A stretch of 64,000 bases of DNA from Escherichia phage p000v. Position 1 is the first letter of the stretch. Every line of letters starts with the position of its first letter. Shown in pieces: positions 11,587 to 14,318 of the stretch. A model generated the notes under the pieces. The model did not search any database, had not been told where the DNA came from, and saw nothing but the letters and a program-made list of their open reading frames with translations. Location: the sequence record NC_055781.1. One strand, given 5' to 3'. The position numbers and the translations under genes were made by a program.

Positions 11587-12102
11587 ATGAATATTCGTTT
11601 AGGCAGTACAATTACTAAGGGCTACGTAATTGATGTCACTACCTATGAAAATGATGGTGACAACTATAAAACCAAAACATTGTTTGAAGTGGAAGAACAT
11701 GAGCTCCAACAGTTTAAATATCTCTTGAAGAAATTTAAGAGCCGTCATTCTAGCACCAAAGCCGAACGCTATTGCGGTAATACACCATTCAGTGATTGCT
11801 CGCTTATTATCTACGAATATCTGGTTGAAGGACTGTTCTCAGACCAACTCCAACCGGAATTTATTAAAAAGGTCTTTGGTATCGAAGTAGACCTTGGTGA
11901 TAAATCTGAAGAAGACGAAGCCCGCGTATTCGACCTGTTCTTTGTGAAAGGCGATGAGATATCTCAAGGACTTATTGATATTCTTGGCTATGCTTCTGAA
12001 TACTATGATTACGATTTCTTGCGTGTAGTTGAACGTGTCGAATTTGCTTATATTGAAAAAGAAATTGTTTTGCCAACAGTTAAAATGGTTGATTTGCTTT
12101 AA
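11587..12102 (+). CDS. hypothetical acidic protein
   Basis: 171-aa ORF with SD; no motif recognised. Confidence 0.55.
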   Translation: MNIRLGSTITKGYVIDVTTYENDGDNYKTKTLFEVEEHELQQFKYLLKKFKSRHSSTKAERYCGNTPFSDCSLIIYEYLVEGLFSDQLQPEFIKKVFGIEVDLGDKSEEDEARVFDLFFVKGDEISQGLIDILGYASEYYDYDFLRVVERVEFAYIEKEIVLPTVKMVDLL

Positions 12103-12181
12103 GAATTATGTGTTATTATTAATTCATACCCTCTATTACCAAAGGTGCTCTAAAGTGCCTTTCATAATAGAAAGTTATTAA

Positions 12182-12253
12182 GGCCCTGTAGCTCAATGGG
12201 AGAGCTGTCAGCTCATAACTGATAGGTAGCTGGATCGAAACCAGCCAGGGCCA
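12182..12253 (+). tRNA. tRNA with CAU anticodon (elongator Met or Ile2-type); CCA not encoded
   Basis: Hand-folded cloverleaf: acceptor GGCCCTG/CAGGGCC, D-stem GCTC/GAGC, anticodon stem GTCAG/CTGAT with loop CTCATAA, T-stem GCTGG/CCAGC; 1-72 pair is G-C so not an initiator. Confidence 0.8.
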
Positions 12254-12294
12254 TATTTTGGGAACATAAATACTCTTAGAAATAGGAGATATTT

Positions 12295-12963
12295 ATGTTC
12301 CATTACACTTATAAAATAACAAATAAAATTAATAATAAAATCTATATAGGCGCTCATTCTACCGAAAATTTAGATGATGGATATATGGGTTCTGGTAAAT
12401 TATTAAAAAGAGCCCAAGACAAGTATGGTATAGAAAATTTTAATAAAGAAATTTTAGAATTCTTTGACACTAAAGAGCAGATGTTTGAAGCCGAGAAAAA
12501 TATCGTAAACGAAGAATTTTTGAATCGTTCTGACGTATATAATTTAAAACTTGGTGGCGAAGGTGGTTGGGACCATTTAAATACTTACGAATTTAATTAT
12601 AAAAAGAAAGAAGCCTCTATTAAAGGAGCCAAAGCTTTTAAAGAGAGATTTGATTCTGATGAAGTGCTTCAAGAAAAATATCGTAAAATGGGTTCAGAGA
12701 AATTAAAGCATCTGTGGACTTTACCTGAATACAGAGAAAAATTCTCTAGCACTAAGTCGTTTTTAAATAAAAATCATACTTCCGAAACTATTGCTAAAAT
12801 GAAAGATACCCACGCCAGGAACAAACACCAACAAGGCGAGAAAAATTCCCAGTTTGGTACTATGTGGATTCATTCATTAGAAGAAAAGAAATCTAAGAAA
12901 ATTAAGAAAACCGATCCTATTCCGGAAGGTTGGATTAAAGGCTATAAACTAAAATTTAAGTGA
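12295..12963 (+). CDS. GIY-YIG homing endonuclease (SegB-like, tRNA region)
   Basis: YKITNKINNKIYIGAHS...GSGKL GIY-YIG motif; adjacent to tRNA as T4 segB. Confidence 0.85.
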   Translation: MFHYTYKITNKINNKIYIGAHSTENLDDGYMGSGKLLKRAQDKYGIENFNKEILEFFDTKEQMFEAEKNIVNEEFLNRSDVYNLKLGGEGGWDHLNTYEFNYKKKEASIKGAKAFKERFDSDEVLQEKYRKMGSEKLKHLWTLPEYREKFSSTKSFLNKNHTSETIAKMKDTHARNKHQQGEKNSQFGTMWIHSLEEKKSKKIKKTDPIPEGWIKGYKLKFK

Positions 12964-12970
12964 GGAAAAT

Positions 12971-13316
12971 ATGAAAGGTAATATTTATCTGGTAGTTCAT
13001 GATTTAACGTTTTATTTTAACGAACAGGATACAGTTATTTCGCGACCGGTTGATTAATTCATTATATCAACACGCTGATTACGTTTATTTCCAAAATGAA
13101 TTTGGCCATTGGAAGTTCCTTAAAAATCGTTCCGGGTTAACTAGTTTTGAATACTTTGACCGTAAAGACCTTTTAAACGAAATTCCATTGCAACATCGGT
13201 TCCAGAAACGCGAATCATTATATTATTGCCGTCATATACCAAACGCAGAATGTGCCAATGAAGCGATTAATCTATGGCGTAGACGTAGAGAACAAATTGA
13301 TGATATGCCAAAATAA
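12971..13316 (+). pseudogene. possible frameshifted gene (28-codon ORF with strong SD, then 88-codon frame lacking ATG)
   Basis: ATG 12971 with GAGGA SD opens a 28-codon frame ending 13057; an overlapping frame is open from 13008 to 13316 with no ATG; T-rich run at 13011-13020. Confidence 0.35.
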
Positions 13317-13617
13317 GAAGCCGGGTCGCTACCGGCAAGACGTCGGACTGATGTTCCCTGGGTAAGGACTGGTCTTAATAAATCTTTACGATTTGTTAAT
13401 ATCCCCTTACATCACAGCAGAAACGGCGCGCAGAATTATCGATTCGAGGAAATATCTTTGCCGTAAGCCGAGTAGCGTTTTTGACGGAACGTTCGGATAT
13501 GGTCGAGATATGGCCTTTTAAAAATATTGAGTAGCGTCAACTGCTTAATAACCGGGTTCGAATCCCGGCGTTTCGTACAAACACTTACCTAGTAGGTGGA
13601 AACCCCGACAAGGTATA
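13317..13617 (+). ncRNA. candidate stable small RNA(s) with tRNA-like 3' element (analogous to T4 RNA C/D region)
   Basis: 300-bp ORF-free stretch beside tRNA/seg locus; T-arm-like CCGGGTTCGAATCCCGG (13552-13568) plus acceptor-like pairing CGGAACG/CGTTTCG; ends at strong terminator. Confidence 0.3.
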
Positions 13618-13647
13618 AAGCCCCTTCCGAAAGGTTGGGGCTTTTTT
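13618..13647 (+). terminator. intrinsic terminator
   Basis: Stem AAGCCCC/GGGGCTT followed by TTTTTT. Confidence 0.8.
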
Positions 13648-13648
13648 G

Positions 13649-13656
13649 TATAAATA
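13649..13656 (+). promoter_or_regulatory. T4-type late promoter TATAAATA
   Basis: Exact TATAAATA 36 nt upstream of CTS protein gene at 13692. Confidence 0.6.
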
Positions 13657-13691
13657 TAGTAAACAATAAACCTACTTTCTAAGGACCATCG

Positions 13692-14318
13692 ATGTATACT
13701 TTTAATGAATTTTTAGCCGAAACGGAAGTAATCACCGAAGCCGGTGTACGTATGACAAAAGAGAAATGGCAAGCTGCTTACGATGCTATTTCTGGTACAA
13801 AAACTAGTACAGAGTTTTTCAAAAACGTTCAAGCCATGTACGGTATCGACACTTCCAGCCAAAAAGAATATTACAGAGCTTCTAAAGCATTCAAAGATAT
13901 TGTTAGTGGTGGTGTTTCTGCTAAATCTGGTTCGCCTAAAGTAAAACCTGCTCCTACCATTCCTAAACCTGCGACCCCTAAAGCAATAGCAAAACCTGAG
14001 CCTAAGCCTGAAGTAAAAGCAACTCCTAAAGCTCCTGCTCTTAAGTTTGATACTTCTAGCCTGGAAAAAAAATATAGACAACTATCTTCGCTTGTTCGTG
14101 ATATTGAATCCGATACATCTTCACTCGTTCGTGAATTCAATAGTCTTCGTAATGGCCAACATATCAACAACCTTGATACCCCAGACCTTTATCGTCTTTA
14201 TTTGACTATCGAAGGTTTGAAGTATACTCAACCACTTCATGATGAGATTAAAGAAAAACTTCGACAAGCAGGTCGTTTGGCTGCTGACGCTGCTCAGTAT
14301 GCAAAAACTCGTAAGTAA
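13692..14318 (+). CDS. capsid-targeted protein (CTS-like leader MYTFNEFLAE) with Pro/Lys-rich linker
   Basis: N-terminus resembles internal-protein leader; PKxKPAPTIPKPATPK repeat region; late promoter upstream. Confidence 0.7.
   Translation: MYTFNEFLAETEVITEAGVRMTKEKWQAAYDAISGTKTSTEFFKNVQAMYGIDTSSQKEYYRASKAFKDIVSGGVSAKSGSPKVKPAPTIPKPATPKAIAKPEPKPEVKATPKAPALKFDTSSLEKKYRQLSSLVRDIESDTSSLVREFNSLRNGQHINNLDTPDLYRLYLTIEGLKYTQPLHDEIKEKLRQAGRLAADAAQYAKTRK

Follow-up and report, generated by a model that had tools for sequence, protein, structure and literature searches.

In this study, we analysed an interval of Escherichia phage p000v, positions 13317 to 13647 on the + strand of a 64,000-nucleotide (nt) stretch of sequence record NC_055781.1 (hereafter the window), which lies between an open reading frame (ORF) ending at 13316 and the next gene, starting at 13692. 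The interval reads as the rnaD-rnaC locus of a T4-like (Mosigvirus-type) phage, comprising what would be a pair of small stable non-coding RNAs, species 2 followed by species 1, and downstream of them a trailer hairpin and a terminator closing the transcription unit of the transfer RNA (tRNA) region; we put the probability of this reading at roughly 0.93. The feature is of a long-known kind, already described in T4-type phages. Its elements are the following.

About 13313-13433, + strand: rnaD (species 2 RNA) homologue, placed by annotation transfer from RB7 and Aplg8 and by model R2
13434-13438, + strand: spacer AAUUA, 5 nt, between rnaD and rnaC, placed by alignment
13439-13577, + strand: rnaC (species 1 RNA) homologue, 139 nt, a predicted tRNA-like cloverleaf, placed by identity to RB7, Aplg8 and T4 and by model R1
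13481-13486, + strand: apical loop UUGACG of the long rnaC hairpin, with complementarity in 17 homologues
13535-13540, + strand: anticodon-like loop CGUCAA of rnaC, the partner of 13481-13486
13582-13598, + strand: trailer hairpin of 7 base pairs (bp), CACUUAC-CUA-GUAGGUG, from RNAalifold on 7 phages
13619-13647, + strand: intrinsic terminator, a hairpin of 8 + 2 bp with a GAAA loop, then U6, placed by folding energy and the Aplg8 annotation

A blastn search with positions 13300-13700 as query against 50,697 phage records gave 801 matching records, nearly all of them from T4-like phages of Escherichia, Shigella, Yersinia, Salmonella, Enterobacter and Citrobacter. Beneath the match, the carefully annotated records of T4 GT7, RB7 and Aplg8 carry the non-coding RNA features rnaD ("species 2 RNA") and rnaC ("species 1 RNA") plus a terminator. 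The region aligned end to end with the annotated rnaD and rnaC of these three phages, which bears out the proposal of an earlier, sequence-only reading that the interval is the counterpart of the small stable RNAs C and D of T4; the coordinates of both RNAs were transferred through the four-way alignment. The rnaC homologue is identical to those of RB7 and Aplg8 (139/139) and shares 137 of 139 positions (98.6%) with that of T4 GT7. Over about 115 nt, the rnaD homologue is 91% identical to that of RB7, 86% to that of Aplg8 and 85% to that of T4. The gene order is also that of T4, RB7 and Aplg8, in which the rnaD-rnaC pair ends the tRNA region and is followed by the terminator.

The likeness to T4 holds for each RNA. 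For rnaC (139-140 nt in T4), homology over the full length is accompanied by the same length, the same family fold and the same distal position in the tRNA region before the terminator; the context alone differs, in that a seg cassette replaces tRNA-Arg upstream and a frameshifted ORF stands between the tRNA gene and rnaD. For rnaD (about 120 nt in T4), homology goes together with the family fold and with its place immediately 5' of rnaC, 5 nt upstream, and the two phages share the P1 hairpin, the CGUCG/CGGCG closing helix and the UUCCCUG motif, although T4 rnaD reads GUCGUCG where that of p000v reads GACGUCG. Matches to rnaC were present in 742 phage records and matches to rnaD in 729. The rnaC sequence was at least 99% identical in 489 of the 742, whereas none of the 729 rnaD matches reached that level, a contrast in agreement with an earlier paper, in which rnaC is called well conserved and rnaD more degenerate (PMC12685909). 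The covariance-model check proposed in the sequence-only reading was run against Rfam 15 and returned no family for rnaC or rnaD, either over the whole window at gathering score or over 11800-14000 at E values up to 10; the permissive scan gave matches at chance level only, namely asX2, NsiR1 on the terminator and tRNA-Sec at 16.6 bits.

With a folding energy of -50.2 kcal/mol (z = -4.55), the 139-nt rnaC segment was not equalled in stability by any of 200 shuffles. RNAalifold was applied to nine sequences, covariance model R1 was built from the result, and 17 distinct homologues were realigned with it; the divergent ones came from Moonvirus, Karamvirus, Klebsiella and Citrobacter phages, Edwardsiella phage PEi20 and IMG/VR contigs. 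The RNAalifold consensus is a four-armed fold. Of the cells in this 17-sequence alignment, 97.5% are paired, and compensatory change occurs at 22 of the 37 pairs; none of 500 shuffles matched these values, and slid-register controls on the same alignment paired at 40-49%. The p000v sequence scored 159 bits against model R1, the window being among its nine seed sequences. On this comparative evidence, rnaC is predicted to be a tRNA-like cloverleaf. Its acceptor stem joins 13440-13446 (CGAUUCG) to 13569-13575 (CGUUUCG) over 7 bp with two invariant U.U mismatches, is 100% paired in the 17 homologues and shows compensation at one pair, from A-U to G-C. A 3-bp "D stem" (AGG/CCU, 13447-13449 with 13514-13516) closes a 64-nt hairpin (13450-13513) with heavily co-varying stems. 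The anticodon-like arm (13525-13534 with 13541-13550) has nine pairs and one unpaired position per strand, and its 6-nt loop, CG(U/C)CAA, is otherwise invariant and has no U33. The T arm is canonical: the motif CCGGG-TTCGAAT-CCCGG, noted earlier from the letters, is present at 13552-13568 as a 5-bp T stem with the 7-nt loop UUCGAAU, directly abutting the acceptor stem. The discriminator U at 13576 is followed in the window by ACA (13577-13579), as it is in T4, and the Klebsiella-phage homologues encode U-CCA.

Compared with a canonical tRNA (RF00005), rnaC shares the 7-bp acceptor stem made from both ends, the T arm, the discriminator base, the ACA or CCA and a position in the array with tRNA-like spacers; in other phages, a similar spacer of 4-7 nt separates rnaC from the CCA of the preceding tRNA. 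It differs in the U.U mismatches of the acceptor stem, in the replacement of the D arm by a 3-bp stem closing a 64-nt hairpin, in the 9-pair anticodon-like stem and in the 6-nt loop, and rnaC has neither a 7-nt anticodon loop with U33 on a 5-bp stem nor a short D loop. That the region does not fold as a canonical tRNA had been stated before and agrees with the programs: ARAGORN made no call at rnaC, the Rfam tRNA model was blank there at gathering score, and the best match within the tRNA clan of Rfam was tRNA-Sec, whose gathering score is 47. Genuine tRNA genes are also hit by model R1 over their whole length, at 17-20 bits; examples are a tRNA-Ser (locus L010, 354-451) and a tRNA-Ile (locus L014, 114-194). 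No transfer-messenger RNA (tmRNA) was called by ARAGORN in the window and no Rfam tmRNA match was obtained. The acceptor/T-arm half is the part recognised by tRNA enzymes, and, like the tRNA-like domain of tmRNA, the bacterial YrlA/Y RNA and the 3' tRNA-like structures of plant viruses, rnaC keeps this half and has the decoding half replaced. This likeness is a functional analogy; membership of rnaC in any of these classes is unsupported, as it has no tag reading frame, no Rfam match and, by eye, no Ro-binding helix.

Two loops of rnaC, UUGACG (13481-13486) and CGUCAA (13535-13540), are exact reverse complements. The match amounts to six Watson-Crick pairs in 17 of 17 homologues, and when the loop letters were shuffled, any such 6-nt loop-loop match arose in 0.9% of trials. 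Five sequences from Klebsiella phages have UUGGCG and CGCCAA in these loops, a double change from A-U to G-C at pair 13484:13537. These five sequences form one clade and represent a single evolutionary event. Because the covariation amounts to one event in one clade, we rate the two loops as a candidate kissing-loop pair, which may be intramolecular or dimer-forming. This loop-loop complementarity is possibly a detail new to the literature that we consulted.

The rnaD homologue has an A-rich 5' leader, the hairpin P1 (13320-13324 with 13332-13336) and a long irregular hairpin closed by CGUCG (13341-13345) with CGGCG (13424-13428), and the motif UUCCCUG is single-stranded at 13354-13360. The motif and the closing helix are invariant among rnaD homologues, and the central and apical part of the hairpin varies between genera. 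Single minimum-free-energy folds of the homologues share one architecture. When 17 distinct homologues were realigned with model R2, 91.9% of cells were paired and compensatory change was seen in 15 of 20 pairs, matched by 0 of 500 shuffles; p000v rnaD scored 105 bits against this model, for which the window was a seed sequence. The alignment thus predicts that rnaD is a separate conserved fold and not tRNA-like. A tRNA-like reading of rnaD, suggested by the ACCA-like 3' end in T4, was tried and dropped, as the tail is unconserved (ACCA, ACCU, ACCG, ACCC, ACAG or GCAG, with none in Karamvirus and Moonvirus) and the closing helix leaves no N-CCA geometry. By a rough count, GGA (CsrA-type) motifs showed no enrichment. 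On the minus strand, the reverse complement of the P1 hairpin plus TTCTTATTTT (13336-13320) scores as terminator-like; we regard this site as probably due to chance because no minus-strand gene was seen nearby.

Downstream of rnaC, the trailer hairpin is conserved, and p000v itself shows a compensatory replacement of G-C by A-U in it; the hairpin is also retained in Dhakavirus IME540 and in VR26, both of which lack rnaC. The strong terminator claimed from the letters is present at 13619-13647 (-17.8 kcal/mol, z = -4.0), where a hairpin (13619-13641) is followed directly by U6 (13642-13647) as in an intrinsic terminator; Aplg8 annotates the equivalent site as a terminator, and the Dhakavirus terminator shows one compensatory C-G to G-C change. 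The scanner for sigma-70 promoters and terminators found nothing above shuffle expectation and missed this terminator because of its internal UU/UU mismatch. A MotA-box-like middle-promoter motif lies upstream of tRNA-Met at 12093-12120, consisting of TTTGCTTTA at 12093, 12 nt and then TATTAT. The late-promoter consensus TATAAATA occurs at 13649-13656, between the terminator, which it follows directly, and the gene starting at 13692.

The closest relatives of p000v here are Mosigvirus-type phages such as AV117 and Mizar. The tRNA-Met at 12182-12253 is the sole ARAGORN call in the whole window, and Rfam at gathering score agrees. The order in AV117 is tRNA-Met, tRNA-Arg, a 114-amino-acid (aa) ORF and then a non-coding stretch, and in both AV117 and Mizar, the stretch without annotation that separates the 114-aa ORF from the following ORF contains the same rnaD. 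The place of the AV117 tRNA-Arg is occupied in p000v by a seg-type homing-endonuclease cassette at 12254-12951 (ORF 12295-12963; Pfam GIY-YIG). The 114-aa ORF, intact in AV117 and Mizar, is frameshifted in p000v (12971-13058 + 13050-13316), and the stop codon of this frameshifted ORF (12971-13316) adjoins the 5' leader of rnaD. Pfam gave no family for the 114-aa ORF or for the 208-aa ORF downstream. p000v retains one tRNA gene plus both stable-RNA genes. The arrangement in Mizar differs again, running tRNA-Met, tRNA-Asn, a seg-like gene and tRNA-Arg.

Across phages, rnaC and rnaD behave as cassettes of tRNA arrays. We found rnaD in Tequatrovirus, Mosigvirus, Gaprivervirus, Dhakavirus, Karamvirus, Moonvirus, Jiaodavirus and one member of the Vequintavirinae, Escherichia phage vB_EcoM-LTH01, whose rnaD-type RNA (locus L007, 1500-1605; 109 bits with model R2) directly follows tRNA-Met; its presence there, outside the Straboviridae, suggests horizontal spread of the cassette. 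In the tRNA-rich Salmonella phage KM16 (Moonvirus; locus L005), rnaD (554-659) lies between tRNA-Asn and tRNA-Asp, and rnaC (1506-1652) lies between tRNA-Trp and tRNA-Gly, starting 5 nt after tRNA-Trp, so that about 850 nt with tRNA genes part the two; rnaC of PG7 is likewise between tRNA-Trp and tRNA-Gly. At every locus where both were seen, rnaD is upstream of rnaC. In Dhakavirus IME540 (locus L004, 1502-1705) and in VR26 (locus L006, about 1400-1572), an rnaD-type RNA is followed directly by the trailer hairpin and terminator; rnaC is missing with precision, in the manner of a cassette that can be removed. The rnaD copy of VR26 is very divergent. A blastn search from the most divergent rnaC, that of PEi20, yielded 765 records. 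Their distribution over organisms was nearly the same, with phages of enterobacterial hosts in the majority, and no more distant branch appeared.

Three other explanations of the interval have to be weighed. The sequence-only reading had paired CGTTTCG, just after the T arm, with an upstream CGGAACG, and this complementarity is real (13485-13491 with 13569-13575, 84 nt apart, one G.U) but is not a conserved helix. If the two 7-mers formed an acceptor stem, the 3' part of the interval would be a long tRNA-like gene, which we consider very improbable. The 16.6-bit tRNA-Sec match, which spans 13484-13576 (E = 7), would suit such a gene but falls far under the gathering score, and although ARAGORN, like GenBank, calls the equivalent segment of Enterobacter phage PG7 (locus L008, 652-746) a 95-nt tRNA-Met, it was blank over rnaC in the window and in the other six of the seven rnaC-bearing loci scanned; the PG7 "tRNA-Met" within rnaC is best regarded as a false positive. 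The CGGAACG:CGUUUCG stem itself was rejected, because it shows zero covariation, is broken in the divergent homologues of KaAlpha, Ursula and the Klebsiella phages, and is paired as well in 500 of 500 shuffles. In KM16, a G-to-A and a U-to-C change turn its G.U into A.C, whereas the same two changes are compensatory in the 5'-end acceptor stem and the internal hairpin. The true partner of CGUUUCG (13569-13575) is therefore predicted to be CGAUUCG (13440-13446) at the 5' end of rnaC. Least credible of all is the view that the region encodes small proteins, as the "hypothetical protein" coding-sequence (CDS) features in GenBank imply. Many related records do annotate one to three such proteins over the interval, but the only ORFs that overlap it in p000v, on both strands, are short: 37 aa (13252-13365, +), 42 aa (13393-13521, +; starting within rnaD and extending into rnaC) and 34 aa (13436-13540, -), in keeping with the earlier statement that it holds no credible ORF. 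Moreover, the changes among homologues track base-pairing and not codons, as the compensatory pairs of both RNAs show; in Moonvirus and Karamvirus, rnaC and rnaD stand apart, packed between tRNA genes, which makes a spanning ORF impossible there; and RNAC of T4 has been seen as a discrete RNA (PMC9697503).

The remaining explanation is that the two elements are decaying tRNA pseudogenes, or spacers that act only in cis by securing maturation and termination of the tRNA transcript, with no function as free RNAs. Both do sit inside tRNA arrays with tRNA features, Dhakavirus and VR26 manage without rnaC, and 50 years have brought no trans function to light (PMC3014915). We nevertheless judge this explanation clearly improbable, since rnaC is at least 99% identical in most of the records that carry it and is more conserved than its flanks, and since its loops are invariant while its stems co-vary, which is the signature of selection on a folded RNA and not of decay. 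In addition, a phage reduced to a single tRNA gene retains both RNAs, and when a T4-like phage adapted to a semi-permissive host, a convergent single nucleotide polymorphism (SNP) in rnaD appeared in every line (PMC12685909).

The tRNA cluster of T4 has a middle promoter immediately in front of it, from which a transcript of about 1.75 kb is made; this transcript ends past the species I gene and serves as precursor to the tRNAs as well as to the species I and II RNAs (PMC2330249). The two RNAs build up late, and northern blots show RNAC (PMC9697503). By analogy, transcription in p000v would probably start at the MotA-box-like promoter near 12093-12120, cross tRNA-Met, the seg gene and the frameshifted ORF, and end at 13647. 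Because of its acceptor stem, T arm and U-(A/C)CA tail, rnaC would be expected to be freed like a tRNA, by RNase P cleavage at 13439/13440 followed by 3' trimming and possibly CCA repair. The same RNase P cut would define the 3' side of rnaD, and the compact folds would shield both RNAs from decay. The T4 processing literature of the 1970s-80s, with RNase P, RNase III and a dimeric "p2Sp1" precursor, agrees with this scheme.

The function of rnaC and rnaD is described as unknown (PMC3014915), and our literature searches for a recent functional study found nothing past that description. Given that rnaC keeps the half recognised by tRNA enzymes, has no usable anticodon loop and survives near-total loss of tRNA genes, we speculate, with low confidence, that it may be a non-decoding tRNA mimic titrating a host or phage tRNA-binding factor. 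A more elaborate version is that rnaC is a purpose-built tRNA mimic, in which the kissing loop would lock the anticodon-like loop to the tip of the expanded D arm and leave the acceptor/T-arm face free for a tRNA-recognising factor (e.g., a host anticodon nuclease or some other enzyme of defence or processing that targets tRNAs), and that rnaD would be a second, independent array-borne RNA affecting host range and shared beyond the Straboviridae. We regard this version as unlikely to hold as it stands; if true, it would explain why both RNAs, with rnaC nearly invariant, persist in phages stripped of most tRNA genes.

Several points weigh against the identification of the interval as an rnaD-rnaC locus that yields stable RNAs as in T4, or against what we build on it. 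We infer the ends of both RNAs in p000v from annotation transfer, and their accumulation has been seen in T4 only, so that they are presumptive stable RNAs here. In p000v, rnaD is preceded by a frameshifted ORF and has the 3' tail GCAG, compared with tRNA-Arg and ACCA in T4, and because of these differences its 5' and 3' maturation may differ from that in T4. The RNase P and 3'-trimming steps go back to T4 work of the Abelson, McClain and Apirion laboratories in the 1970s-80s. T4 that has lost the entire tRNA region is still viable on laboratory hosts, so any function would be conditional, and the decoy role is pure conjecture.

Of the RNAs that lack an assigned function, rnaC and rnaD were among the earliest to be sequenced. 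The rnaC cloverleaf with its predicted 5'-end acceptor stem, the candidate kissing loop, and the rnaD consensus together with its spread over genera offer handles for mutagenesis. The comparative folds could also seed covariance models for automatic annotation. Our analysis leaves the kind of feature unchanged; what it adds is a refined fold with one alternative stem rejected, a candidate kissing loop, a broader range of phages carrying rnaD, and evidence that this locus is widely misannotated or left without annotation. For p000v, the interval should carry rnaD, rnaC and terminator labels instead of a blank or a hypothetical-protein CDS. Many GenBank records place hypothetical-protein CDS features over rnaC and rnaD or leave the region blank, and one has the label "tRNA-OTHER" within rnaC.

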